Origin: a virus
Taxonomy: Duplodnaviria; Heunggongvirae; Uroviricota; Caudoviricetes
DNA: 11,595 nt
Virus record (IMG/VR): IMGVR_UViG_2579778753_000002
Coordinates: 1-11,595 of that record
Direction: 5' to 3' (one strand)
This document shows, in pieces, positions 1 through 11,595 of the stretch; position 1 is the stretch's first letter, and each line of letters opens with the position of its first letter. A program made the position numbers and the translations under genes. A model generated the notes under the pieces. It was not told where the DNA came from. It searched no databases and saw only the letters and a program-made list of their open reading frames with translations.

Positions 1-95
1 AGTTTGCTCCTGCCATAACGTGAAGAAGCAATGACCTGGTGGTCCGTGACTTCCCTACGCTGGCATTATCCAGATCAGGTGATACGGGTATTTCT
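1..95 (-). promoter_or_regulatory. thiM: 3' portion of the thiM TPP riboswitch / thiM 5' leader (thi-box 3' helices, P1 3' strand, SD), cut off from its 5' half by the island
   Basis: Reverse complement of 1-95 reads AGAAATACCCGTATCACCTGATCTGGATAATGCCAGCGTAGGGAAGTCACGGACCACCAGGTCATTGCTTCTTCACGTTATGGCAGGAGCAAACT. I recognise this from memory as the 3' two-thirds of the E. coli thiM thi-box leader ending at the SD (GGAG at 6-9, minus). The thiM ATG would lie immediately left of position 1, outside the window. Confidence 0.85.
82..95. repeat. att core / target-site direct repeat, left copy (ATACGGGTATTTCT)
   Basis: Exact 14-bp direct repeat with 11182-11195. Each copy is joined to one half of the thiM riboswitch sequence on its outer side and to island sequence on its inner side. 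Confidence 0.8.
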
Positions 96-154
96 TACTA
101 ATTTTTGTTATCAGTTGATAATTAATAAGTTTTTAAGCATATAAGAATTAAAAA

Positions 155-230
155 CCTCAAAAATGACCACACAACTGACCACACATTTCGTTGAAGCCCT
201 ACGAACAACGACGAACAATAACAAACAAAA
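155..230. repeat. Arm-type direct repeat (left), containing tandem TGACCACACA x2 and CGAACAA x2
   Basis: About 95% identical to 11031-11106 (4 differences over about 75 bp). In an excised circle the two copies would flank the core at roughly 60 and 85 bp, as integrase arm sites do in attP. Confidence 0.6.
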
Positions 231-466
231 GGGAAATTTGCTGGCAGTTTTGCTTAACCGTTATCATTTTTCGGCTATCCGCTATGAAGCTGGTGGATGA
301 TCACGGATAATCCGTTATGTGGATCCCCATATCGGCATCAGGCCCACCAGCGTGAAGCGTTTTTCATTTTTCGCGGGTATAAAAAATCGATGGGGCTGGC
401 AGTCCGGAAGACGTCAGGGTACAGAGATTTGACCCGCCCCTCCCTGTGCATGAGCACAATAAGTAA

Positions 467-490
467 CCGAAGGCGGAATTCCGCCCTCGG
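467..490 (-). terminator. Candidate intrinsic terminator for the leftward TerS-like/95-aa operon
   Basis: CCGAAGGCGG-AATT-CCGCCCTCGG: 10-bp GC-rich stem with one mismatch and a 4-nt loop. On the minus strand it is followed by TTACTTATTGT (T-rich). Confidence 0.4.
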
Positions 491-522
491 TGCTCACATA
501 TGAGAAACGATATTTCTTACAC

Positions 523-628
523 CGATACCCTTTATTTGGGTATCGCGAGTAAGCCCCAAAATCTGGGTGTTACTCTTACTACCCAAACTACGGGTAGTTT
601 CATAGTCGAGTTGCAGATCTGCAACTCG
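523..628. repeat. Cluster of three inverted repeats / palindromes in the island's terminal non-coding region
   Basis: 523-545 CGATACCC-tttattt-GGGTATCG (8-bp perfect stem). 585-600 AAACTAC-gg-GTAGTTT. 607-628 CGAGTTGCAGATCTGCAACTCG (perfect 22-bp palindrome centred on AGATCT/GATC). Confidence 0.6.
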
Positions 629-675
629 CCACCAGTTGCTAAGTGCATTTTTGCACTTTCGGTAATATCAACCAG

Positions 676-963
676 TTACCGCCGTAAGTGCTCCGGCTTC
701 CTCCACTGGTAAGTATTTTTCGCGCTCTCCCTCCGTTGTTGAGAACGGCGACGGTATGCCAGCAACTCAAGAACTCTGGTTCGTATGTTGCGCATATCCA
801 CGCCGTTAAGCTCAATACCGTCACGGCGCATTACCTCAGCCACCACACGCGCGTAATTTTCAGCGGTGACTGTATCCGGCTGCGCGGCCTGTTCGTCAGC
901 CAACTGGCTGATTCCACCAGCACAGCGGATTAATCGCAGTATTTCAGATTCGGTCATTATCAT
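676..963 (-). CDS. Hypothetical protein, 95 aa, Arg-rich basic C-terminus; translationally coupled to the upstream TerS-like gene
   Basis: ATG at 963-961 overlaps the TGA of the preceding ORF (ATGA overlap at 960-963). Ends in a basic tail (RRRSQQRRESAKNTYQWRKPEHLRR). No family recognised. Confidence 0.55.
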   Translation of the reverse strand: MIMTESEILRLIRCAGGISQLADEQAAQPDTVTAENYARVVAEVMRRDGIELNGVDMRNIRTRVLELLAYRRRSQQRRESAKNTYQWRKPEHLRR

Positions 964-1445
964 GCCTGTTTTGCGACCTCATTCACTACGTCATTTTTTA
1001 CCATCCGGCTGATAATCTGATTACGCAAATCGTCAATAATTGACTGCACTCTGTTTACTGCCATCGGTTTAAGCCCGGCATCACGTGCCAGAATATTGGG
1101 GAGTTTTGCCAGTTCCTCGCTTACGATTTCCCCCCATATAGCCATCTCTTTTCGCACATCATCGGCGGGTATGAGTTGCGCCGTTTCCTGTTCGAACCTG
1201 AGGCGCTCACGTTCGGACTGATACCAGGCCTTACGGTCATGTGGCTCCATTTCTTCCAGTGATGCCGGAACGGGAAGATCAAGAAAACAGGTCAGAATGT
1301 CAGTCACCCGATAGAGTTTTAGCTTGTCATGCCCTCCGGCTGGCTGGATGTTTTTCAGCCTTGCCGCCGCAGTCTGACGACATATTCCCGCTATCGCCGC
1401 CAGTTGATTAATGTTCAGCATCAGATTTTTCAGTTCTCGATCCAT
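960..1445 (-). CDS. Nu1-like small terminase-type HTH protein (candidate satellite TerS or Rpp-like packaging-redirection protein), about 161 aa
   Basis: The ORF-track start at 1532 is a TTG. I prefer the ATG at 1445-1443, preceded by GGAG. The N-terminus (MDRELKNLMLNINQLAAIAGICRQTAAARLKN...LYRVTDIL) has the layout of the lambda Nu1 winged-HTH DNA-binding domain, followed by a predicted helical region. Confidence 0.6.
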   Translation of the reverse strand: MDRELKNLMLNINQLAAIAGICRQTAAARLKNIQPAGGHDKLKLYRVTDILTCFLDLPVPASLEEMEPHDRKAWYQSERERLRFEQETAQLIPADDVRKEMAIWGEIVSEELAKLPNILARDAGLKPMAVNRVQSIIDDLRNQIISRMVKNDVVNEVAKQA

Positions 1446-1716
1446 ACCCGCTCCAGAATGTTTTAAACATGCATCTTGCGAACAACTTTCAGAAGAGGTC
1501 AAAAAATGCGCTATATGTTGAGCATAAAACAAGCAAAATTAACATGCCAAAAATAAAAATACTTAAAATTCAATACAATAGAAAGATGATGATGACGAAT
1601 GAAAATGCAAAAACTAGCCTTTTTCCGCGCCGCTCCCGCCCCGTGGCAGGCCACCTCACCGGGAGGACCCACCCAAAAAAGGCGACTGTCACTATTGTTT
1701 ATGCTCCATGAGCGAC

Positions 1717-1738
1717 AAAACCGCCCGCAGGCGGTTTT
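1717..1738 (-). terminator. Rho-independent terminator (usable in both directions) after the gpI-like gene
   Basis: AAAA-CCGCC-cgca-GGCGG-TTTT, 18 nt downstream of the gpI-like stop (1756). Confidence 0.7.
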
Positions 1739-1755
1739 ACATAAAACGTTTTGTA

Positions 1756-2397
1756 TCAGCGACCAATCACCACAATCTGGCCGCCATCCCCTTCATCTGC
1801 TGTGCTGATCTCTTGCGAAATCACCCGCGACCCGACGCGCATTTCACCGTACAGAACAGGCACAACATTGCCCTGGGCAACCATGTTATCCAGAGAGGAG
1901 AAATAGGTGTTCTGCTTACCGTTATCCGTGGTGCTGGCTGTTGCTGTGCTGGCTTTCGGTGCCAGCATCTGTGCAACACCACCAAGTGTCATCGCCGCCC
2001 CCATTGAAAAGAGAATGTCACTGAAAGCGATACTGATTCCTGGCATCCAGATTGCCGTAGCAATCAGCGCCGCACCAAGCACCGCCTGAAACACGCCGCC
2101 ACTTTTGGCACCAGCCAGACGCGGTACGATGTGGATCACGGCACCATTTTCCAGCGGTTCATTAAGACGGGCTGATAATTCGTTTTCGCCTGTATCACGC
2201 CCGGCAATACGCACCTGATACCAACCATCGCTCAGTTTCTGACGAAACGCTGGGATCTGCATGGCCAGCGCCCGGATGGCTTCGGCCCCCGTTTTCACAT
2301 GAAGATCGATGCGGCGGCCAAATCGTTGTAAATCCCCGTAAAGGCAGATGCGTGCCATGCCCGGTGACGCCAGAGGGAGTGTGTGCGTCGCTGCCAT
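1756..2397 (-). CDS. Lambda gpI-like tail tip assembly protein, 213 aa
   Basis: ATG start with an AGAGAGG RBS. The protein (MAATHTLPLASPGMARICLYGDLQRFGRRIDL...ADEGDGGQIVVIGR) matches my recollection of lambda tail assembly protein I almost end to end, with a shorter Gly/Ala-rich central region. Recalled, not searched. Confidence 0.65.
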   Translation of the reverse strand: MAATHTLPLASPGMARICLYGDLQRFGRRIDLHVKTGAEAIRALAMQIPAFRQKLSDGWYQVRIAGRDTGENELSARLNEPLENGAVIHIVPRLAGAKSGGVFQAVLGAALIATAIWMPGISIAFSDILFSMGAAMTLGGVAQMLAPKASTATASTTDNGKQNTYFSSLDNMVAQGNVVPVLYGEMRVGSRVISQEISTADEGDGGQIVVIGR

Positions 2398-2486
2398 TTG
2401 TCGGTATACCTCTCTCGTTTGCTCAGTTGTTCAGGAATATGGTGCGGCAGCTCGCCGCCCCACGTGTTCAAAGTACCGCCTTGTTG

Positions 2487-4400
2487 TCATGCTCCATTCG
2501 ATTTCAGCAATCCACGATAATCGAGGGCCGCGACACCTGCATCTATGCGCACCTTCCAGGCGACACCATCAACAGTAAAGCCCACCTGCTCCTCAAGATA
2601 TGGCGTATCCATACCATCAAGATAAGCGACTTCTATTGTGTCCATCCCCTTAGCTGCGGCTACATACCATTCCTTGCTATTGGCCTTATCAAGACGTGGC
2701 TCAACAATTACTTCTGCCATATCTTTCACAACGTTAATGATGCCGGGGTTCTGATTGATAGTACCCTCATCACCAACCGGAAAGACTGATGACGATGACA
2801 GAATGGCGCGACGCGCGGCAGATTCCAGCGCGGCAGGGACCAGAACAAAAGCAGGGGTAATATTCAGTGAGTCGCCGTTAGCATCCTCCTGGAGGCGCAT
2901 CAGCTTACGGGCTTCATCAAGCCCCACCATGTCCATATCCTTCGCAATAAGATTTTTATGATCGGCATGGAATAACGCTTTACCATCCGTAAACTTGCCG
3001 TTGCTGGTTAACAGGAGATAAACCAGATTGCCAACTGTTCTGGCGGCTGCGCGTCCCATCGCCATGGGGATTGTAGTTAACTGGGTCAGGTCATCGTTGA
3101 TAATGGCCTGACGGGTAACGGAAAAAATATTCCCGTACGTGGCCAGCGCAATAGGTACACCTTTATCGCTGGTGGTGATGTATTTATATTCCGCACCTTC
3201 CGGTACTTTATCCAGCTTTGAAAAACCATTCAGACCAACGCGCTTTGCTTCATGAAAGTTTGAAAGCGAACCGGTACGCGTCCATTTCTGGAACGTTTCG
3301 CCGCTGTCCTGCCAGCCTTTCAGTACAGATTTTTCAGCCCCACCAGCCAGAATATGAGAAAAATCACTGCTGCTGTGTGTAAAAGCCGCATTAACAACCT
3401 GCGAGCGATTAATAAAACCACTCACAGTGATACCACGATCAACCAGTGATGCCTGGGCCATTTCAAAAAGGCTCATCATCGCGTAAGGGTTGCCTCGTTC
3501 AGGGCGTTCATACCCAAGACGGGAATAAAGCCCCTGACGAATTGCATCACCTGTTATGTTTCCGTTTCCGGCATAGATATGAGGCGGAGTATTTTTATTG
3601 GATGGCGTGGACTCGCGCCCCAGCTCGTTCAACAGCTTTTCACGGGCCATTTCCGGTGTACATGATGCATCTTCCAGACACGCCATTTTGATCCCGTCGT
3701 AACGACTGCCGAACAGGCTAAACACTTCACTTATTCCATTGATGCGCTTCTGTTCATTACCAGCAATATTTGCCGCTCCCTGTGGCGGTGTAATCATTCC
3801 TTTAATGGTTTCCGGCATATGTAAAAAATCTCCTGTGCGCTTCGATTCAATTCGCGCCATTGCTCTGACGGATGGCAACAATTCATCAGCAAAACCGTGC
3901 TTAAGGCATTCTTTCCCGTCCATCCAGGTTTCATCTTCCAGCATGGCGGTAATTTCCTGTGCTGATTTGCCCGTTTTTCTGGCATAAGCAGGGACTAACA
4001 CGGTTTCCACCTTATCCAGCAAATCAGCATAATCACGCATATCACCAGCATTTCCGCCAGAGATACCCCACGGCTTATGTATCATCATCATGGCGTTTTC
4101 CGGCATCACAACACGATCGCCAGCCATTGCGACCACCGAAGCCATTGAAGCCGCAACACCATCGATATAAACCGTAATGTCTGCCGGATGATTCCGTAGC
4201 AGGTTATAGATGGCGATGCCTTCAAACACATCACCACCTGGTGAATGGATCCTCAGATTGATATGTGAAACATCGCCAAGGGCTTTCAGGTCTTCCGCGA
4301 ACTGCTTTGCAGTAACACCGAAGCCGCCAATCTCCTCATAGATAGATATATCCGCCGCTCCGCGAACATCCGCCGCCTTAATGGTGTACCAGCGATTCAT
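2487..4400 (-). CDS. Fusion of ClpP/S14-type prohead protease (N-terminal), linker/scaffold-like segment and HK97-fold major capsid protein (C-terminal), 637 aa
   Basis: N-terminus has ClpP-like motifs (HSPGGDVFEGIAIYN, GVAASMASVVAMAGD, MMMIHKPWG). The C-terminal 350 aa or so looks like a phage major capsid protein (ITPAFVLVPAALESAARRAI..., FTVDGVAWKVRIDAGVAALDYRG). ATG start with a GGGGGAA RBS. Long ORF with no internal stops. Confidence 0.85.
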   Translation of the reverse strand: MNRWYTIKAADVRGAADISIYEEIGGFGVTAKQFAEDLKALGDVSHINLRIHSPGGDVFEGIAIYNLLRNHPADITVYIDGVAASMASVVAMAGDRVVMPENAMMMIHKPWGISGGNAGDMRDYADLLDKVETVLVPAYARKTGKSAQEITAMLEDETWMDGKECLKHGFADELLPSVRAMARIESKRTGDFLHMPETIKGMITPPQGAANIAGNEQKRINGISEVFSLFGSRYDGIKMACLEDASCTPEMAREKLLNELGRESTPSNKNTPPHIYAGNGNITGDAIRQGLYSRLGYERPERGNPYAMMSLFEMAQASLVDRGITVSGFINRSQVVNAAFTHSSSDFSHILAGGAEKSVLKGWQDSGETFQKWTRTGSLSNFHEAKRVGLNGFSKLDKVPEGAEYKYITTSDKGVPIALATYGNIFSVTRQAIINDDLTQLTTIPMAMGRAAARTVGNLVYLLLTSNGKFTDGKALFHADHKNLIAKDMDMVGLDEARKLMRLQEDANGDSLNITPAFVLVPAALESAARRAILSSSSVFPVGDEGTINQNPGIINVVKDMAEVIVEPRLDKANSKEWYVAAAKGMDTIEVAYLDGMDTPYLEEQVGFTVDGVAWKVRIDAGVAALDYRGLLKSNGA

Positions 4401-4606
4401 TGTTCCCCCACCGATGCAAAACCATTCTGATTAAGCCAGGTGTTTACGGCATGTCTGACAATCTGCGCCACACCTGGTAATGGTTGGTCAGGATGATGAT
4501 TTATATGGTCGATCCTGTACTGCTTAAGGCGCATAACGGTCTGCGCATCCAGATGAACGGAACCACCTCTGGTATCACCTGTATTCAGGTCATTAATACA
4601 ACTCAC
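4397..4606 (-). CDS. Hypothetical small protein (69 aa), translationally coupled to the protease-capsid gene
   Basis: GTG start at 4606 preceded by AGAGGAAG. Its TGA overlaps the ATG of the capsid gene (ATGA at 4397-4400). Confidence 0.5.
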   Translation of the reverse strand: MSCINDLNTGDTRGGSVHLDAQTVMRLKQYRIDHINHHPDQPLPGVAQIVRHAVNTWLNQNGFASVGEQ

Positions 4607-4708
4607 AGCAACTTCCTCTGACTGACTAAACTATGCACATTATTGATCGATAAAAGTGGTAAATAAACATGTTTCTATCATAAAAACAGATTAATTAGAT
4701 TCAGACAC

Positions 4709-4731
4709 AAAAAAGCCGGATTTCTCCGGCT
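4709..4731 (-). terminator. Rho-independent terminator ending the replication operon / ori region
   Basis: On the minus strand: AGCCGGA-gaaa-TCCGGCT followed by TTTTTTG. Confidence 0.65.
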
Positions 4732-4867
4732 TCTGTCACTCGTTGCTTAAAACGGTATGTTATCCCCGTACGGATCATCATTCCCCGCCTGTTGTTTTGG
4801 TGTGCTTCGCTGTCATAGGCTTTATCTCACAGCAGTAAATTAAAATTTTTGCGTTTTAACCCTTCAC

Positions 4868-5090
4868 CTGTTCACCTTTTGATATTTTCTCTTTTAATTC
4901 ATAATGTTAAGGGGTGAACAGTTTCAAAAAAACTATTCACCAACTGTTCACCACTGTTCACCCTTGAAGCTCAATAAACAATCAAAAAGGTGAACAGTGA
5001 ATAGTTTGGTGAACAGTTCATAAATAACTGTTCACCCTATAATATACTGATATAAAAGATATTTATGACAGGGTGAACAGTGGTGAACAG
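4868..5090. repeat. Iteron array (at least 9 copies of GGTGAACAG / CTGTTCACC in both orientations) with an AT-rich stretch: candidate P4-type origin of replication
   Basis: Direct copies at 4913, 4989, 5009, 5072, 5082. Inverted copies at 4868, 4944, 4954, 5029. Degenerate copies at 4933 and 4997. AT-rich 5041-5069. Sits immediately 3' of the alpha-like gene. The motif contains TGTTCACC, which I recall as the P4 alpha-binding type I iteron. Confidence 0.75.
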
Positions 5091-5103
5091 TTATTCCATA
5101 AGT

Positions 5104-6921
5104 TTAATTTTTGCTATCGTCATTAGTGACCGATACACATGATGGCATCCAGTCTTCTGATTCCTCCGTCAGTGTCACGTTTGAACGCAAACCGTGCTTC
5201 GTTTTCCGTTTCATATACTCCCTGCCATATTCCGCCATTGCCCCCGGCATATCTTTACCGAAGCGCGTCAGTGTTACAGGTTTACCAAACCCATGTGCCC
5301 TCATATAAGCCAGATAGGCATGATAGAGATACCTGCGTGGGCTGAATGGCACAATTTCAGCATTACCCACTAACAGGCCATCACACATTACCGACGCCAT
5401 GAGATAGCCGCAGAAGTCCACCAGCGAATCCCCCTCTCGCTTTATCGCCAGTGCTTCTTCTGATTTCTGCTGCTCATATAACAGGCGTCTGGCTTCGTCC
5501 TGGTCAGCAAACCGTGTAAGCAGATGGCGAATCACTACCGCCAGCTCACCTTCTATTTTTTCCGCCAGCATTGGATCACGTTCGTTCTCCGGTACAACTT
5601 CCGAAAAATTGAATATCACCCGACGACGTGAGATCCCCCCGCTGCGGTCACTGAATGACATGGCGTTATTGTTAACCGCCAGCACTACTGCCGGAATACG
5701 CGTTGAGTAGGGGGCTTTGTGTTTCGGGTCAATTGCCACCTTGTCACCGCCTGTAATAGCCTTAATCCCTGCCCCATCACCAGCGTAGCGGGTCATATCC
5801 GGCATGATAATCAGCGAAAAGCCAACCACTAACGCGCGTTCCCTTGCATCTTCCAGCGCCTTCATGCTTGCCGATACTGTGTTGGCCTTACCCGCCAGCA
5901 TGGTGCAAATCTCCGCCATCACGCTTTTACCACTTCCCCCTGGACCTGTTACCTCAATGAATAACTGCCAGTCGTACCGGTTCGCCAGCACCATGAATAA
6001 TGCAGCCAGTACGCGATCCGCCTTGCGGTCATTCTCAGCCACCGAACGGCGTAACCACTTCCAGAAATTCGGCGCATGTGTTGCCAGCATTTCCCCCTCT
6101 GCTGGTGGGCTGAAAGGTAATTCACTGGCAATTAACAACCAGTCGTTTTTGTTATGCTCCCGAAAATTACCTGTTCTGGTATCAAATACCCCGTTACTGA
6201 ATCCAATCAGGTTACGGGCTGTATTCCCCATTACAGGCAAACTTAACTTCATGGTATCGACCGCCGATTTAATGGCGTTCTGCGAATAGCTGATCTCCGC
6301 ATCAATGAAAATCTGCGCCATAGCTCGCTGTAATTCTTTATCCTGTACTGGCTCCCATACAACGCCGTTGTAATGGTGAACAGTGTCAGAGTCAGCATGA
6401 ATCGCCAGTTCACCGCCATAATGTGCCAGGAGAACTTCGCCGCGTTGACTTGCTCCCATCTGGTTAAGCGCCAGTGATGAAGCGTTATCGTCTTTTACCC
6501 GCTCTTTTTTCTTTACAGGCAGTTCAACTACCTTTTTCTTTTCCTCCAGCTCTGCCCGTTCACGTTCCAGATATTCGCGCCAGTTCTCCCGTTTCTGGCT
6601 GTGCATTCCTTCAGGGTAATAATCAGCATCCCTGACACCTGCCGCTGCCAGTTTCTGCCCGATGGTATTAACAAGCCCCGGACGCAATAACCCCGCCTGA
6701 TAGAGACGCACGCGATAGCGTCCGTCCGGTACGATTTGCAGGTTGTCCAGTTCGGCAAGTTGTTGCTCTCCAAGCCAGACAGGAGGCACGTTATCGCCAG
6801 CCAGTCGCCCGTCCTGTTCCTGCCACTGCTTCGCATGTGCCCACGCATTACTACCCGCAAAAATGATGACTTCCGTCATTTTGTCACGCGGCTGGTGTTT
6901 TAAATTTGGCGCTTTTTTCAT
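5104..6921 (-). CDS. P4 alpha-like replication protein (D5_N-type domain plus SF3 helicase with Walker A GPGGSGKS; phage/plasmid primase P4-family C-terminal region)
   Basis: About 605 aa from the ATG at 6921 (GGAG RBS); the ORF track extends to a GTG at 6936. Walker A VTGPGGSGKS, Walker B-like LVVGFSLIIMPD. Adjacent to the iteron array. Confidence 0.85.
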   Translation of the reverse strand: MKKAPNLKHQPRDKMTEVIIFAGSNAWAHAKQWQEQDGRLAGDNVPPVWLGEQQLAELDNLQIVPDGRYRVRLYQAGLLRPGLVNTIGQKLAAAGVRDADYYPEGMHSQKRENWREYLERERAELEEKKKVVELPVKKKERVKDDNASSLALNQMGASQRGEVLLAHYGGELAIHADSDTVHHYNGVVWEPVQDKELQRAMAQIFIDAEISYSQNAIKSAVDTMKLSLPVMGNTARNLIGFSNGVFDTRTGNFREHNKNDWLLIASELPFSPPAEGEMLATHAPNFWKWLRRSVAENDRKADRVLAALFMVLANRYDWQLFIEVTGPGGSGKSVMAEICTMLAGKANTVSASMKALEDARERALVVGFSLIIMPDMTRYAGDGAGIKAITGGDKVAIDPKHKAPYSTRIPAVVLAVNNNAMSFSDRSGGISRRRVIFNFSEVVPENERDPMLAEKIEGELAVVIRHLLTRFADQDEARRLLYEQQKSEEALAIKREGDSLVDFCGYLMASVMCDGLLVGNAEIVPFSPRRYLYHAYLAYMRAHGFGKPVTLTRFGKDMPGAMAEYGREYMKRKTKHGLRSNVTLTEESEDWMPSCVSVTNDDSKN

Positions 6922-7217
6922 TTCTGCTCTCTCCACGCGGCAATCATGTTTTTCAGTTCCTGTAGTTTTTTATCAACATCCATACATGACACATGGTTAT
7001 TTCTGGAAGGCGGGATTTCCCGCCGGAATCTGCAAATAAAGATCTCCACGTTCAGCGAACTATGAAATGAATAGCCATCACGAATAAAATACACACGGTC
7101 AAACATCAGTTCTTTTACCGTTACTCTGTTACCGTTCTTATCCAGATAAATAGCGCCGGGGATAATTTTGGGGTGTGCATAACCGCTGGCAGTCAAGCCA
7201 GATATATATGTTCTCAT
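6918..7217 (-). CDS. Hypothetical protein (99 aa), translationally coupled to the alpha-like gene
   Basis: ATG start. Its TGA overlaps the ATG of the alpha-like gene (ATGA at 6918-6921). No family recognised. Confidence 0.55.
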   Translation of the reverse strand: MRTYISGLTASGYAHPKIIPGAIYLDKNGNRVTVKELMFDRVYFIRDGYSFHSSLNVEIFICRFRREIPPSRNNHVSCMDVDKKLQELKNMIAAWREQK

Positions 7218-7223
7218 GATTAT

Positions 7224-7544
7224 TTATCCCCGATTTGAATCAGTATTCGCTTTCTTTATGGCATTTAATGCATCTGTGGCATTTTCAATGGTGCACCGTA
7301 ACGAAATATCAAACTGCCCAAGCATTGCCAGTAACAAACCGATATTACCCATATCAATGCGCATGGCCTTTTCGTCATAGTCCTCATTTTCTGACGCATG
7401 CCACATCAGGCTACCAATTGACGCAATACCCATTGATATATTGTCAGTAGCCCCATCCGCAGCGGAATAAACCTTTTTAGCAATATCATGCTCACAGTTA
7501 AAATGCGGATTAATCAGGTACTGGTAATTGGTCATGTCAGGCAT
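7224..7544 (-). CDS. Hypothetical acidic protein (106 aa)
   Basis: ATG at 7544 preceded by AGGGGGGG. Ends 7 nt before the next gene in the same operon. No family recognised. Confidence 0.55.
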   Translation of the reverse strand: MPDMTNYQYLINPHFNCEHDIAKKVYSAADGATDNISMGIASIGSLMWHASENEDYDEKAMRIDMGNIGLLLAMLGQFDISLRCTIENATDALNAIKKANTDSNRG

Positions 7545-7740
7545 GGCACCCCCCCTGACGAATACGGGCGGCGAATACCATCACGCAGCCAGCCGGGGAT
7601 TGCTGGCGTGCTTCCTGTTCGCTGGTGGCCACGATGGTAATCACGCGCGGTTGTGCCGTGCTCAGGGCGATAAAACGCCAGATGTATTTATTCAGGTTGT
7701 GCGAGTCCCGCCCTTGCGGGTGTGTGGTATGATTTCTCAT
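7537..7740 (-). CDS. Possible small protein (67 aa), first gene of the replication operon
   Basis: ATG at 7740 with GAGG 7 nt upstream. Its stop overlaps the 106-aa start by 8 nt (ATGCCTGA). It is the C-terminal segment of a long, otherwise implausible 362-aa ORF. Confidence 0.35.
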   Translation of the reverse strand: MRNHTTHPQGRDSHNLNKYIWRFIALSTAQPRVITIVATSEQEARQQSPAGCVMVFAARIRQGGCHA

Positions 7741-7838
7741 AGCTGCCTCGATAATCTTGCTATCGTTGGTGGTTAGAAGCCCCGTTACTGCTCCTACAGT
7801 GCGGGGTTTCGTCGTTTCTGCACCTTGCATTAACAAGG

Positions 7839-7916
7839 TGTAAGTAACTTTATTTATAGGTGGCTTACATGTCAATGCTTTTATGTAAGACTTTTTATGT
7901 GTATATTGTCTTACAC
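7839..7916. promoter_or_regulatory. Divergent promoter/operator region with four GTAAG/CTTAC half-sites
   Basis: Half-sites at 7840, 7864, 7885, 7910, including CTTACAT-N12-ATGTAAG. Minus-strand promoter candidate: -35 TTGACA (7875-7870), 17-bp spacer, -10 TAAAGT (7852-7847). Plus-strand candidate -10 TATATT (7902-7907). Confidence 0.45.
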
Positions 7917-7936
7917 TTTCATTGAGAGGATTACAG

Positions 7937-8242
7937 ATGGCTACAGGTTCAAAAAACGCAAAATCACAATCACTGACAGCTCGGATCCCGCATGATGTTA
8001 TTGAAGGCATGGAATCCGTAAAACTGGACGGTGAAAGCAACGCCGGATTCATAGTAACCGCCATGCGCGGTGAAATCGCCCGCCGCCAGGCAGAAGGAAG
8101 CGGAGAAAACCTCCTGGTTTCTTCGCTCGATGCCCTAGCGCAGGTGGAAAAAATCGGAGTCAAAGCCGCCGAGGAGATCGGGCAACTCGTCACCGTCGCG
8201 CGTGAAGAACTCCAGCGACGCAAGGTCAAAGAGCAGGAATAG
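7937..8242 (+). CDS. Ribbon-helix-helix-like putative DNA-binding regulator (101 aa)
   Basis: ATG at 7937 with GAGAGGA 6 nt upstream (the ORF track's 7922 start is a TTG). N-terminal beta-strand-plus-helix pattern (SLTARIPHDVIEGMESVKL). Transcribed opposite to the rest of the island. Confidence 0.55.
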   Translation: MATGSKNAKSQSLTARIPHDVIEGMESVKLDGESNAGFIVTAMRGEIARRQAEGSGENLLVSSLDALAQVEKIGVKAAEEIGQLVTVAREELQRRKVKEQE

Positions 8243-8299
8243 CCACTATCAGCGCCATAGTTTGAGGAACGCAGGCGCATTGCTTTACAGGACAGCACC

Positions 8300-8479
8300 A
8301 TGAGCGACACAGAATCAACCAAAACACCATCACCAACTCGTAAGAGACGACGCAAAAATATAGCGCATGAACATGAATCAGAAAGATTCGCACCTTGTTC
8401 GTTTGCTCTTGAGAAATTCCTTAAAGAGCACAGGAAAAAGCTCTCGTTGCAAACCTTGGAACGAACCAAATCTGACTGA
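8300..8479 (+). CDS. Possible small basic protein (59 aa), downstream of the RHH-like gene
   Basis: ATG at 8300, in-frame TGA at 8477-8479, just below the 60-aa track cutoff. Lys/Arg-rich N-terminus (TRKRRRKNIAHEHE). Followed by a strong terminator. Confidence 0.35.
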   Translation: MSDTESTKTPSPTRKRRRKNIAHEHESERFAPCSFALEKFLKEHRKKLSLQTLERTKSD

Positions 8480-8546
8480 TCACATTGCCCACCAGCCGCA
8501 AATGTGGCATTGTTGGCGATGCGTTCAAGTTTAGTGTGTATCCATT

Positions 8547-8575
8547 GGCGACCGCCCCCGGTCGCCTTTGTTTTA
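8547..8575 (+). terminator. Rho-independent terminator of the rightward RHH-like operon
   Basis: GGCGACCG-cccc-CGGTCGCC (8-bp perfect stem) followed by TTTGTTTTAT. Confidence 0.8.
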
Positions 8576-8593
8576 TATGTCATATGCTCCCCT

Positions 8594-8818
8594 TTACGCT
8601 GCCTTACCTGAATTAACGCGGTCACGGCTTTGCACCCAGTCCATAACTTCGGAAAGCAACCAGCCTACAGAACGCCCCCCAAGATTACGGCGAGACGGAA
8701 AGCCCCCTTTCTTCTCCAGTTCGTAGCGTGTAGTACGGCTGACGCCTGTTAACTTACGACATTCATCCTCACGAATTACGCGATCTGTTAGTGATTGAAA
8801 TTGTGTATTTTGATTCAT
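8594..8818 (-). CDS. alpA: AlpA-family prophage transcriptional regulator (74 aa)
   Basis: ATG with GAGGGTG RBS. HTH region (CRKLTGVSRTTRYELEKKGGFPSRRNLGGRSVGW) matches the AlpA/MerR-like fold found next to P4-type integrases. Confidence 0.85.
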   Translation of the reverse strand: MNQNTQFQSLTDRVIREDECRKLTGVSRTTRYELEKKGGFPSRRNLGGRSVGWLLSEVMDWVQSRDRVNSGKAA

Positions 8819-8921
8819 AAAAACACCCTCGAACGTAACCGAACAAGGGCATCTTATTTACCATAGCAGTTGGTGCAATATTGGAAAAATAAACTTTATT
8901 CTAATTTATCGTTCTCCATGA

Positions 8922-9776
8922 TTAATTTTCATTAGATAACATTTTTCTTATTTTTTCTAAAGAATCGCTGCGCATTATTTTTTCTAAGAAGGGTTTTACA
9001 GTCTGAGCAATAGCAAAGGTGTCCTTTTCACCATCAGGATACAAAGATACGGCAAGCACCCCTAATGAAATTTTTCTATCTGTAGACAACTCCCAAGATA
9101 ATAAGTCAATTAATGGGATTATCTTATAATCAATAATTTTACGTCGTATGCTCTCCCAACTTCCTGCAATTGGTTTGTCTGGCTCAACAATTGAAAGTTC
9201 ACTACGCCATTTTGGTAATAGTTTTGTAAACGCTTCAATCAACTCATCATCTCTGTTATGTAGTAAGTCAACAGAAACAAGCATATTATCTAATGTATCA
9301 GAAAGGAGATTCACTGGTTCACGCATCACAGCCCAAAACATCCCATTATCTTCTGATATTAAACTTCCAACCATCTCATTATCTATGATGATTGGTTTAT
9401 CCTTCCAATATCCTCTTTCCGCAGTCAGTTTATTAATCATTGATATATCAAACCTTGTTACAGGTTTAATTCCATCATCATAACTTAGCTCAATTAACTT
9501 CGGTTGCACTTTATGGTCATATTCTTTTTGTTTATCACAAAACCAATCGTCTTCTTTCAGCTCTCCAAATGGATCCCCGTAATTATTATGCAACGGGTAT
9601 TCAGCACCAAACATAAATCCATATTCAGGCATCTCAGAATGTTTCATCGTTAAATCATCTTGTCGCCAATATAATTGGCGAAATAGATCTTTATCCGACA
9701 AGTTTTCTAGGCAATCATATTTGCCTAAATCAAATGACTTTGGTAAATCTTTTTTACTATTTACTTTTTTCGTCAT
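8922..9776 (-). CDS. Hypothetical protein (284 aa), AT-rich cargo gene between int and alpA
   Basis: Uninterrupted 855-nt ORF. Its ATG overlaps the int TGA (ATGA at 9773-9776). Visibly more AT-rich than the flanking int and alpA. No recognisable catalytic motif. Confidence 0.75.
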   Translation of the reverse strand: MTKKVNSKKDLPKSFDLGKYDCLENLSDKDLFRQLYWRQDDLTMKHSEMPEYGFMFGAEYPLHNNYGDPFGELKEDDWFCDKQKEYDHKVQPKLIELSYDDGIKPVTRFDISMINKLTAERGYWKDKPIIIDNEMVGSLISEDNGMFWAVMREPVNLLSDTLDNMLVSVDLLHNRDDELIEAFTKLLPKWRSELSIVEPDKPIAGSWESIRRKIIDYKIIPLIDLLSWELSTDRKISLGVLAVSLYPDGEKDTFAIAQTVKPFLEKIMRSDSLEKIRKMLSNEN

Positions 9777-10993
9777 TGTATCCCTCTCAATATCACAATA
9801 TTTTCATTATATCCTGCAATCATATCAAGACGCTCAACCCATAGATTCAGTGCGTCCCGTTTCGCCTGCAAATAGCGTGAATGGTTATAGGTTTTTTGCT
9901 GACCTGGCATCTGATGCGCTGTGATGTGCTCCACGATATGCGGATCGACACCTAAATCATTCAGCATAGTTGTAAACGTGTGTCGGAAATCATGCAGCGT
10001 CCAGTGTTCCTGCTTAAGCCGCTTATGCGCATTTCGTCCATATTGCGCCACCGTGGTATCTTTTTTCAGTTCGCCGAGTAATAACCCAGTGTGTGCGTTT
10101 TGCTCCACCAGCTTCTGAATGAACGGCAAAATACCATCAGGAATAGGTCGGAATATTGTTACCTTCGTTTTGCTGTGCTCTTTTGGCACTGTCCACAACA
10201 TTTCTTTCAGATCCCATTCTTTGATCTCTGAAAGTCTGATCTCTGCCGTTCTGCACCCGAACACAATTAACAAGCGCATTAACGCACTGTAATAGGGAGC
10301 GAACACATCACCATCAATAGCGCGTAGAATTTCTTTTAGTTCGCTGTTGCTGTGCACTCTCTCGCGGATTTCTGCTCTCTTACCCACATCAGTAACGATC
10401 AAATCGTCCAGGGCGTTGCTAAACGCGTAGCGCCGCCTGCGGCAAAACTTTAGCGCCTGTTTGCATGTCTGCATGACATGGCCCGCTGCTACTGGTGCTT
10501 TTTTTCGTACGCGGTCAAAACATGCGATCCACTGCCTTGTATCACACTTATCAAGGGGAATTGCCCCAATATGGCAAATGATGTGCTTATCCATACGCTG
10601 CACCAGCTTTATGTAATCTTTGCGGTTATCCTTCGCGTATTCCTCCAGCCAGTAGTTAATCGCTTCCTTCACCGTAACGGGTTTTAGTGCTTCCTGTACT
10701 GTGGCGCACAACTCATAACGGGGGTTTTTACCCTCAGCCAGCCATGCCCGGCACAGTGTGCGTTTTTCCCTTGCGGCTTTCAGCGACAATTCAGGGTAAG
10801 CCCCCAGCTTTAACCGCTCTGCGGCAACCTCACGGCCTCCCGTTCGGTACCGGAAATACCAGGTTAATTTGCCGCCCTTTGAGTGTTTAATCTCCAGCCC
10901 GCCCCCGTCGGAGTAAAAACGCTCTTTTTCTGCCTGGACAGCCGCCAATTTTTTTAACGTCGAATCGCTCAGTTTGTTTAGTGCTTTTCCCAC
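9773..10993 (-). CDS. int: P4-family tyrosine integrase (406 aa)
   Basis: GTG start with GAGGA RBS. N-terminal arm-binding-type region (GGLEIKHSKGGKLTWYFRYR...GAYPELSLKAAREKR). C-terminal catalytic region with HDFRHTF and a downstream Tyr. Adjacent to the att site. Confidence 0.9.
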   Translation of the reverse strand: MGKALNKLSDSTLKKLAAVQAEKERFYSDGGGLEIKHSKGGKLTWYFRYRTGGREVAAERLKLGAYPELSLKAAREKRTLCRAWLAEGKNPRYELCATVQEALKPVTVKEAINYWLEEYAKDNRKDYIKLVQRMDKHIICHIGAIPLDKCDTRQWIACFDRVRKKAPVAAGHVMQTCKQALKFCRRRRYAFSNALDDLIVTDVGKRAEIRERVHSNSELKEILRAIDGDVFAPYYSALMRLLIVFGCRTAEIRLSEIKEWDLKEMLWTVPKEHSKTKVTIFRPIPDGILPFIQKLVEQNAHTGLLLGELKKDTTVAQYGRNAHKRLKQEHWTLHDFRHTFTTMLNDLGVDPHIVEHITAHQMPGQQKTYNHSRYLQAKRDALNLWVERLDMIAGYNENIVILRGIQ

Positions 10994-11030
10994 TATCAGA
11001 TCCTCTTTTCAGTCCTCCAGCCTCAAAAAA

Positions 11031-11106
11031 CTGACCACACAACTGACCACACATTTTGTTGAAGCTCTACGAACAACGACGAACAACAACAAACAATAAA
11101 ACAGGA
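11031..11106. repeat. Arm-type direct repeat (right), partner of 155-230
   Basis: Same tandem TGACCACACA and CGAACAA sub-repeats. Lies in the int upstream region, about 40 bp from the int start. Confidence 0.6.
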
Positions 11107-11181
11107 TAATTTATTGTTTATCAAATACATACATAAACAACCACAAGCAACCCCGAACCACAAAAAACACTAAATGAGAAA

Positions 11182-11195
11182 ATACGGGTATTTCT
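11182..11195. repeat. att core / target-site direct repeat, right copy
   Basis: Identical to 82-95. Confidence 0.8.
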
Positions 11196-11238
11196 CAGCC
11201 TTCACGCAGAAGGGCACCCCGAGTCGTTTGGTTGCGAT
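11182..11238 (-). promoter_or_regulatory. thiM: 5' portion of the thiM TPP riboswitch aptamer (P1 5' strand, P2, P3, CUGAGA), separated from its 3' half
   Basis: Reverse complement reads CAACCAAACGACTCGGGGTGCCCTTCTGCGTGAAGGCTGAGAAATACCCGTAT, which I recognise as the 5' half of the thiM thi-box. Confidence 0.85.
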
Positions 11239-11322
11239 GATAAATCGCAGAGGAGGATGGTAATGTCCAGCGCACGCGTTGTAAACGAGGAAAAACGGCA
11301 GTTTTACAATCGCGTTAATAAA

Positions 11323-11595
11323 TTATTTGATATATGAATCCAGCACCTTCAGAACGACATCCAGATCTTCTTCACGTTTTAGCTCATCCCCCTGGTGAAC
11401 GATGTGTTCCGTCAGATGACCTTTAATCACTTCCCGCATCAGACCGTTTACCGCGCCACGGATAGCAGCAATCTGTTGTAAAACTGCAGCGCATTCGTGC
11501 GGCTCGTCGAGCATTTTCTTGAGCGCCACGACCTGGCCCTGAATCTTACTGGCACGCGCTTTCAGTTTCTGTTTATCACGGATTGTATGAGACAT
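11323..11595 (-). CDS. rcnR: RcnR, Ni/Co-responsive transcriptional repressor (CsoR/RcnR family), 90 aa, complete
   Basis: ATG at 11595. The protein ([64 protein letters not shown]...) matches my recollection of E. coli RcnR, including the His-Cys metal-site signature. Confidence 0.9.

Follow-up and report, generated by a model that had tools for sequence, protein, structure and literature searches.

A close variant of the Escherichia coli island EcCI224 with a single-gene capsid fusion and a putatively chimeric small terminase

The stretch of DNA described here (11,595 nt, positions 1 to 11,595 of the IMG/VR virus record IMGVR_UViG_2579778753_000002, as a whole referred to as the window) covers a region of Escherichia coli with one end just upstream of thiM and the other at rcnR. 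Between positions 676 and 4606 it has a small set of late phage genes, which very probably make up the 'late', or packaging, module of a phage-inducible chromosomal island (PICI) that is 11,100 bp in length, belongs to the EcCI224 family and is inserted into the thiM thiamine pyrophosphate (TPP) riboswitch. The large open reading frames (ORFs) of the window are on the minus strand, with one exception. In the direction of transcription the module starts with a 69-aa ORF (4397-4606), followed after a 4-nt overlap by a 637-aa fusion of a ClpP-like protease, a scaffold and a major capsid protein (2487-4400; CLP_protease and Phage_capsid_4). Next is a 788-bp insertion from a lambdoid tail operon (1691-2478) with an intact gene for a gpI-like tail-tip protein (1756-2397; Lambda_tail_I 4e-23, phrog_32 2e-83), then a cos core (1586-1670), a gene for a DUF1441 protein of 161 aa that resembles the small terminase subunit, TerS (960-1445), and a terminal ORF of 95 aa, or of 93 aa if counted from the second ATG (676-963). 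All of these are on the minus strand, as are two terminator-like hairpins, one between the replication origin and the module (4711-4734) and one 3' of the last island gene (466-491; an 11-pair stem with eight G-C pairs). The five ORFs listed in an initial annotation of this DNA were all recovered with the same coordinates and on the minus strand.

The island occupies positions 96-11195. Its borders are given by an exact 14-nt direct repeat, with one copy on the thiM side (82-95; on the plus strand ATACGGGTATTTCT, the reverse complement of AGAAATACCCGTAT) and one on the rcnR side (11182-11195), where it adjoins the 5' half of the thiM TPP riboswitch. The core AGAAATACCCGTAT, between thiM and rcnR, is identical to the published att core of EcCI224 (Fillol-Salom et al. 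2018, ISME J, Table S1; att alignments in PMC10111431). EcCI224 is a reference Gram-negative PICI from E. coli Ecol_224 (CP018948.1, 1961620-1972242), for which the site was given as frmR-thiM (Fillol-Salom et al. 2018). The corresponding region of that host aligns with 93% of the window at 98.8% nucleotide identity. Both islands sit at thiM/rcnR with the 14-bp core, and they share the genes for integrase, DUF6387, AlpA, YlcI/YnfO, an Icd-like protein, DUF4222, primase, the ClpP-capsid fusion, DUF1441 and the 93-aa ORF; unlike EcCI224, the island has the 788-bp insertion with gpI. The element had initially been regarded as unlike the known E. coli PICIs and possibly undescribed. This can no longer be upheld: judged from these identities, it is a close variant of an already catalogued PICI and not a new strategy of piracy.

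The gene content is in line with this assignment. According to Moura de Sousa et al. (2023), a PICI is defined by an integrase, an AlpA-type regulator, a primase-replicase, a capsid-morphogenesis gene and a small terminase, and 97% of the 'Type A' elements, which have all five components, are found in E. coli. All five are present in the island, in the canonical order. The order of zones described for PICIs, Integration, Bro and Replication followed by Late, where the Late zone consists of captured late genes of the helper (PMC10111431), fits as well; in the same study 21 of 29 reference PICIs have a capsid gene and some PICIs carry a CLP_protease gene. The island is compact, sits between short direct att repeats at a chromosomal site specific to PICIs, and has an integrase at one end, an AlpA regulator and, except for a YlcI/YnfO-like ORF on the plus strand, only one direction of transcription. 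An iteron origin is located immediately 3' of the primase-replicase, and 3' of this origin follows the packaging module, which includes cos and is free of lysis genes and of a full structural set. The sole exception to a typical packaging module is one tail gene, gpI. In the PICI model of SatelliteFinder tail genes are 'forbidden', but a single one is tolerated in post-processing (Moura de Sousa et al. 2023). A portal, a large terminase subunit (TerL) and a tail set had been reported as missing, and indeed none was found between the att cores, neither among the ORFs nor in the RefSeq annotation of near-identical copies. These copies have 12-14 coding sequences, one of which is a pseudogene fragment in the copies that bear gpI.

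The replication and integration half of the island had been called P4-like, and for the replicon this holds. The tyrosine integrase (9773-10993, minus strand; RefSeq and NCBIfam) is 22% identical to P4 Int and the AlpA-family regulator/excisionase (8594-8818, minus strand; Phage_AlpA 5e-16) is 48% identical to P4 Vis. The primase-replicase (5104-6936, minus strand; D5_N, DUF5906, Pox_D5) has a P4 alpha-like helicase and origin-binding part that, from its own residue 131 on, is 49-50% identical to residues 301-771 of P4 alpha, the helicase/DNA-binding part. No match exists for the primase domain at the N terminus of P4 alpha; the first ~130 residues of the replicase match phrog_2850 and stand in for this domain of 300 residues. 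In the origin (4869-5101), TGTTCACC / GGTGAACA iterons of both orientations surround an AT-rich stretch. Nine exact TGTTCACC iterons are located at 4869-5089, and the P4 annotation has this octamer as its 'ori type 1 repeat'. No other P4 homologues are present: tblastn of the P4 proteins against the window (E <= 0.01) gave no match for sid, delta, psu, epsilon, the cI/kil region or gop/beta/cII, and P4-type immunity RNA (C4/isrK) had no Rfam match in the window at E <= 0.1. Therefore, the term 'P4-type' does not fit the element as a whole.

The P4-like alpha homologue and the identical iterons would be expected if the element represented an undescribed class of satellite, in which a P4-type chassis is combined with a new three-unit strategy (capsid fusion, gpI and TerS) directed at lambdoid helpers. 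The atypical gpI, a member of the 'forbidden' tail genes, and the fact that DUF1441 is not mentioned for any satellite in the literature searched would also be in favor of such a class. Nevertheless, this explanation is very unlikely. The island family is named and catalogued, the identity with EcCI224 contradicts the idea, the gene set is that of the Type A definition, and homologues of sid, delta, psu and epsilon were not detected in the window by tblastn. Furthermore, gpI is absent from EcCI224 and most relatives, so there is no conserved three-unit design. Another explanation, that the module consists of remnants of a degraded lambdoid prophage beside or merged with a P4-like island, could refer to the truncated fragment of gene K that accompanies gpI, but its probability is close to nil. 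The att cores of a compact 11.1-kb island, which has no other prophage genes, enclose the whole module, and islands with this module are integrated at thiM/rcnR, at clpS/cspD, and beside a UDG-family gene and rpoD, which makes three sites. The ratio of nonsynonymous to synonymous substitution rates (dN/dS) is about 0.09; in a comparison of two islands it was 0.087 for the fusion, at a dS of 0.16, and 0.085 for the 95-aa ORF. In these respects the initial annotation was right: the genes of the module are intact and under selection, and they belong to a satellite island and not to a decayed prophage. At a coverage of at least 80% the module is present in 115 of 5,426 complete E. coli genomes.

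The initial annotation had overlooked the cos site. The cos core is 85 nt in length, is located between the gpI and TerS genes on the minus strand and is 92-99% identical to the region 5' of TerS in mEp460, PhiR55_1, vB_EcoS-606R10 and L014, a full lambdoid prophage; the sequence further upstream is unrelated (36-40%). The window has a single match to the core, and 200 shuffles had none; among phages the core is present in 36 records, and among the 5,426 E. coli genomes in 848. The records of the phages cdtI and Tritos start exactly at GGGCGGGAGCG. In cdtI the record ends with ...GGTGGCCTGCCACG and starts with GGGCGGGAGCGTCGCGG, and Tritos starts at the same base. The left end of lambda is GGGCGGCGACCTCGCGG. 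Because of these record starts and of the lambda end, cosN was placed at 1641..1630 (minus strand, GGGCGGGAGCGG), and we infer that the overhang has a length of 12 nt. The region from cosN to the start codon of TerS (1446-1585, minus strand) is cosB-like and 68-69% identical to that of mEp460 and PhiR55_1. Apparently, the island carries a lambda-like cos of the cdtI/mEp460-class phages directly 5' of its TerS gene. When the window was searched for lambda cosN at three mismatches or fewer, this site, which differs at 5 of 12 positions, had been missed. The sequence GGGCGGCGAGCT at 2449-2460 (minus strand), only one mismatch away from lambda cosN, was rejected as a candidate: it belongs to the coding sequence that remains of gene K, close to the boundary of the insertion, and gene K of mEp460 has a similar sequence at the matching place. 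Sister islands have a second copy of the cos core (12531-12614 in L007, 4781-4853 in L002; 89-95% identical), oriented like the first and with the replication module (ori/ssb) on one side and the 69-aa ORF on the other. This is reminiscent of cos1 and cos2 of EcCICFT073.

The TerS gene is preceded in frame by further codons (ORF 960-1532), but its real start is probably the ATG at 1445, and RefSeq starts the near-identical copies at the 161-aa position as well. The protein matched Pfam DUF1441 (4e-36) and phrog_141, 'terminase small subunit' (3e-57). To trace its origin segment by segment, nucleotide identities were determined between the window and L014 on the one hand, and between the window and two PICIs at other sites on the other, L017, which adjoins the UDG-family gene and rpoD, and L013, which adjoins clpS. 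L014 has the order Q, holin, lysozyme, Rz, cos, TerS, GpA-type TerL, portal, a 675-aa fusion, a decoration protein, and Gifsy-2 and Z-like proteins. The cos core is 98.8% identical to that of L014 and 88-92% to those of the two PICIs. For the cosB-like region the values are 97.1% and 47-70%, and for TerS codons 1-97 (1155-1445) they are 96.2% and 69-76%. In codons 98-161 (963-1154) the relation is reversed, with 57.8% identity to L014 and 99.5-100% to the PICIs. An alignment of 32 sequences revealed that the phage-type C half of TerS (VVQVLETLPDILERDC ... acidic tail) is near-invariant across Enterobacterales, whereas the PICI-type C half (IVSEELAKLPNILARDA ... KNDVVNEVAKQA) is found behind three different N-terminal alleles. 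The N half and the central helix are conserved with phage TerS, and the crossover is at the end of this invariant helix, RKAWYQSERERLKFEQETAQLIPA. In related islands the C half is constant as well, and the cassettes of cos, cosB and N half differ. The gene is a chimera of a helper-type N half and a PICI-specific C half. As far as the searchable literature shows, neither a chimeric TerS nor the exchange of such cassettes has been described, and this is the only part of the present observations that is worth pursuing.

It is conceivable, although rather unlikely, that the chimeric protein is not a working TerS but a modifier or decoy like Rpp, the specificity protein of EcCICFT073. The helper-identical DNA-binding half would pair with the TerS of the helper or occupy cosB, and the PICI-specific C half would then block or rewire the link to TerL, which would lead to interference with the helper. 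As in Rpp, the N-terminal part has a winged helix-turn-helix that mimics the DNA-binding domain of the helper TerS. The gene also departs from a phage DUF1441 TerS gene, since its C half is of the distinct PICI type and the 93-aa ORF is downstream in place of TerL. However, there is no sequence homology to RppA (BLASTP E = 0.67), and no PDB chain, Rpp included, was matched by phmmer. In addition, the protein is colinear with TerS over its full length, central conserved helix included. Finally, the cosB of the island equals that of L014 and is not different from that of the presumed helper, unlike in the Rpp system, so a redirection to a different cosB would be impossible. We prefer to regard the protein as a candidate TerS.

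The capsid fusion is recognized by NCBIfam NF045540, 'ClpP-like prohead protease/major capsid protein fusion', with 900 bits at a cut-off of 475; the family bears the name 'scaf_prot_MCP1', and in this class of phages a single gene is protease, scaffold and shell. The gene set had been considered too small for a capsid-forming PICI. This argument is weakened, since one gene supplies protease, scaffold and shell and only the portal and the completion proteins would need to be stolen. No portal, head-tail connector or adaptor, HNH protein or TerL of its own was found among the island ORFs. The fusion has 637 aa in every PICI examined and is 97-98% identical among islands at the three integration sites, with about 60% identity to the fusions of phages and prophages (675 aa in L014, 652 aa in mEp460). 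With the phage protein it shares the ClpP-like motifs VAASMAS and MMIHKP, which, in our reading, would hold the catalytic Ser and His, and a linker segment of 29 residues in the phage fusion is absent from the PICI fusion. Taken together, the capsid fusion represents an old, constrained lineage specific to PICIs.

It is quite possible, though not what we favor, that the gene has no role in the redirection of capsid size. About four tandem copies of the island would then fill a normal helper capsid, a mode of packaging reported for EcCICFT073, and the fusion gene would be dispensable or used for another purpose. The lengths agree with such a model, as 4 x 11,100 bp gives 44.4 kb, and candidate helpers have genomes of nearly this size (mEp460, 44,510 bp; PhiR55_1, 42,916 bp). 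EcCICFT073 was reported to be packaged in full-sized capsids, and PICI capsid genes were reported as not required for transfer. On the other side are the strong purifying selection, the distinct and uniform 637-aa lineage and the deletion of 29 residues in the linker, which argue for a PICI-specific function, and the capsid homologues of SaPIbov5 and PmCI172, which have been linked to small capsids. We retain a function of the fusion in capsid assembly as the working model.

A comparison with better known satellites puts the module into perspective. EcCICFT073, a model PICI of E. coli in which Rpp redirects the packaging of lambda and phi80, has the same order of the chassis, and its late module is likewise composed of a small ORF, a capsid homologue, a specificity gene by the cos region and a 93-aa ORF; like the sister islands, it has two cos copies, and the window has one. 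The differences are in the proteins, since the capsid genes of EcCICFT073 are lambda gpE/gpD-like and RppA is unrelated in sequence to the DUF1441 protein, and in the cosB of EcCICFT073, which differs from that of its helper, whereas the cosB of the window equals that of the presumed helper. As in SaPIbov5, a cos-type PICI of staphylococci with Ccm, a helper-type cos is combined with a homologue of the major capsid protein of the helper, but the proteins and hosts of the two islands are unrelated. P4, too, carries the cos site of its helper, but it uses Sid, an external scaffold, and not a capsid homologue. The capsid-forming PICIs (EcCIEDL933 type) have in common with the island a terminal gene of 93-97 aa (82% identical), the same kinds of integration sites and a capsid protein and protease of their own. 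They also encode a portal, connectors, an HNH protein, a TerS of the Terminase_4 family and TerL, none of which is encoded by the island.

The gpI gene is of a different nature. The insertion (minus strand) consists of the last ~160 nt of gene K, the whole of gpI and a hairpin terminator, and its nucleotide sequence is 85.8% identical to mEp460 14176-14936 and 86-88% identical to lambdoid tail operons. It is absent from the sister island L007, which aligns with the flanks on both sides, and from EcCI224. The terminator after the fusion gene, which is whole in L007 (GGCGGCGACAGCCGCCTTTTTT), is split by the insertion, and therefore transcription of the fusion gene reads into the gene K remnant and gpI; it should then stop at the hairpin that came with gpI (1717-1738). 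This is at variance with the initial description of three separately terminated units. Likewise, the genes had been described as not being in phage order, but the order of fusion, gene K remnant and gpI, cos and TerS is colinear with the circularized phage map. The junction of cos and gpI is present in 23 of the 5,426 E. coli genomes, as opposed to 115 with at least 80% of the module, and it was also found in an island with a different integrase (L002). Apparently, gpI is a recent accessory captured by a minority of the islands and no part of a conserved three-unit design. The protein is 82% identical to gpI of mEp460 at the amino acid level (dN/dS 0.26) and differs from it mainly in a hydrophobic stretch. 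In lambda, gpI is a trimeric component of the tail tip, where it serves as a plug of the tube, and it has hydrophobic helices that may enter the outer membrane (PMC11101478). In a satellite, gpI may be a neutral hitch-hiker. Lambda_tail_I is also found after TerL in helper-embedded PICIs of the capsid-forming type from Klebsiella (genotypes Kpn6334.16 and Kpn6433.16; PMC10111431 supplement), and thus, gpI was captured by satellites more than once.

From the origin of these genes we infer that the helpers are cdtI/mEp460-like lambdoid phages. The head genes of the cdtI/mEp460/Gifsy-like phages are a DUF1441 TerS, a GpA-type TerL, a portal and a single protease-scaffold-capsid fusion, and the phages with homologues of TerS (58 records), of the fusion, of gpI and of the cos core (36 records) are largely one group of the mEp460/cdtI/PhiR/Stx type. 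A circular record of 10,790 bp (NZ_CP148328.1, a 'plasmid' in one assembly) joins both ends of a sister island and appears to be its excised form; it is the only episomal copy in the plasmid collection. We propose a life cycle in which the helper would activate AlpA and the island would excise. The alpha-like helicase would replicate it from the TGTTCACC origin into concatemers, and the TerL of the helper, guided by the chimeric TerS alone or mixed with helper TerS, would cut these at the island cos. The DNA would enter through the portal of the helper into heads that are then joined to helper tails. The fusion protein of the island would probably co-assemble with or replace the capsid protein of the helper and thereby alter the size of the capsid, like Ccm of SaPIbov5, and in islands that have gpI, this protein would become part of the tip of the helper tail.

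Several points weigh against such a scheme. No report of helper-dependent induction, packaging or transfer of this island or of EcCI224 was found in the literature searched. In EcCICFT073, deletion of the capsid homologue failed to restore normal plaque formation of lambda, i.e. the interference was not relieved, which leaves size redirection by the fusion a hypothesis. Phage TerS has a conserved acidic tail that the C half of the PICI TerS does not have, and the PICI protein may be unable to bind TerL at all. Since cosB and the DNA-binding half of TerS are those of the helper, the island TerS alone cannot discriminate between island and helper DNA. And among the matches listed the cos cassette is usually found once per genome, so a co-resident helper is not the rule.

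All of this could be brought together in one picture, to which we attach only a small chance of being correct as a whole: a PICI subfamily between the classical and the capsid-forming PICIs, with a modular TerS adaptor and tuning of the tail tip via gpI. If so, a single fusion gene would build the island's own, probably smaller, shell around a stolen portal. The cassette of cos, cosB and DNA-binding domain would be swapped by recombination to suit the helper available, and the fixed PICI-specific C domain of TerS would rewire the helper terminase, maybe with the universal 93-aa protein. The captures of gpI, here and in the helper-embedded PICIs of Klebsiella, would mean that satellites tune the tail-tip plug of their helpers. 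The class of the element is ordinary, but the subfamily is without an experimental model, and the comparison offers handles that can be tested: a TerS cassette that tracks helper alleles next to a fixed C half, a constrained single-gene capsid builder, a tail-tip gene in a minority lineage, and a small terminal gene that is common to three PICI packaging types. Each of them could clarify how Gram-negative PICIs choose their helpers and interfere with them.

The terminal gene mentioned last matches phrog_1561 (3e-51) and has no Pfam match. It had been attributed to the virion gene sets of lambdoid phages, an origin that is not borne out, as tblastn gave no match in 50,697 phage records. Instead, the protein is 72% identical to the product of the last ORF of EcCICFT073, downstream of rppA, and 82% identical to that of the last gene of the capsid-forming PICIs, which there overlaps the stop of TerL. 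Residues 26-93 are near-invariant, and the family comprises 907 protein clusters, all named 'hypothetical'. The gene thus belongs to the PICI chassis. A terminal gene for 93-97 aa is common to three types of E. coli PICIs (Rpp/lambda, DUF1441/ClpP-capsid and capsid-forming; 72-82%) and is always the last one before the att site (676-963 in the window, 3374-3655 in L008, 6001-6294 in L020-L023). A remnant of the N terminus of TerL was considered and discarded, there being no similarity to TerL of mEp460. The AlphaFold2 model of the 93-aa protein is of low confidence (predicted local distance difference test, pLDDT, 67). At the other end of the module, the 69-aa ORF matches phrog_4934 (5e-33). 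It is open in four islands, and residues 16-45 are identical in L007 despite 10% nucleotide divergence. It has no counterpart in the annotated head operon of mEp460, where the fusion follows 14 nt after the portal gene (no phage search was made for it), and it is not homologous to the 68-aa ORF at the matching position in EcCICFT073.

Between integrase and AlpA is a variable slot, occupied in the window by a cargo gene with the RefSeq product name DUF6387 (8922-9776, minus strand; G+C 0.35-0.38). PADLOC, Pfam and NCBIfam gave no match for this gene, the ORF having been left out of one Pfam scan, and PADLOC found no credible defense match for cargo or small ORFs. For several near-identical islands an additional HEPN-domain protein is listed, and the slot may be one for defense or cargo genes. 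The regulatory or 'Bro' zone (6918-8242) comprises the YlcI/YnfO-like gene (7922-8242, plus strand) and, on the minus strand, an Icd-like gene (about 7537-7740), a 106-aa ORF (7224-7544) and a DUF4222 gene (6918-7217). A 362-aa ORF (7537-8625, minus strand) spans the interval from AlpA to Icd and overlaps the YlcI/YnfO-like ORF on the plus strand; RefSeq annotates only its last ~67 codons, as Icd-like, and the ORF is probably spurious.

Inside both ends of the island, ~65-155 nt inward of the att cores, is a 70-nt repeat with a doubled CTGACCACACA motif (159-228 at the thiM-side end and 11027-11096 at the integrase side; 94% identical). In a circular attP the two copies would flank the core, and they are probably arm-type binding regions of the integrase. 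As att sites themselves they were ruled out, since the published core puts att at 82-95 and 11182-11195. A whole TPP riboswitch at the island end was also ruled out. Rfam gave a score of 33 bits at a threshold of 54, since pairing fails in the half on the island side; all that is present there is the 3' half from the chromosome next to unpaired island sequence. The att core is inside the aptamer of the thiM TPP riboswitch, whose 3' half occupies 1-81 and whose 5' half extends from 11196. Carriers therefore have 11.1 kb between the promoter with the 5' half on one side and the 3' half with thiM on the other, and the genes of the island point toward thiM.

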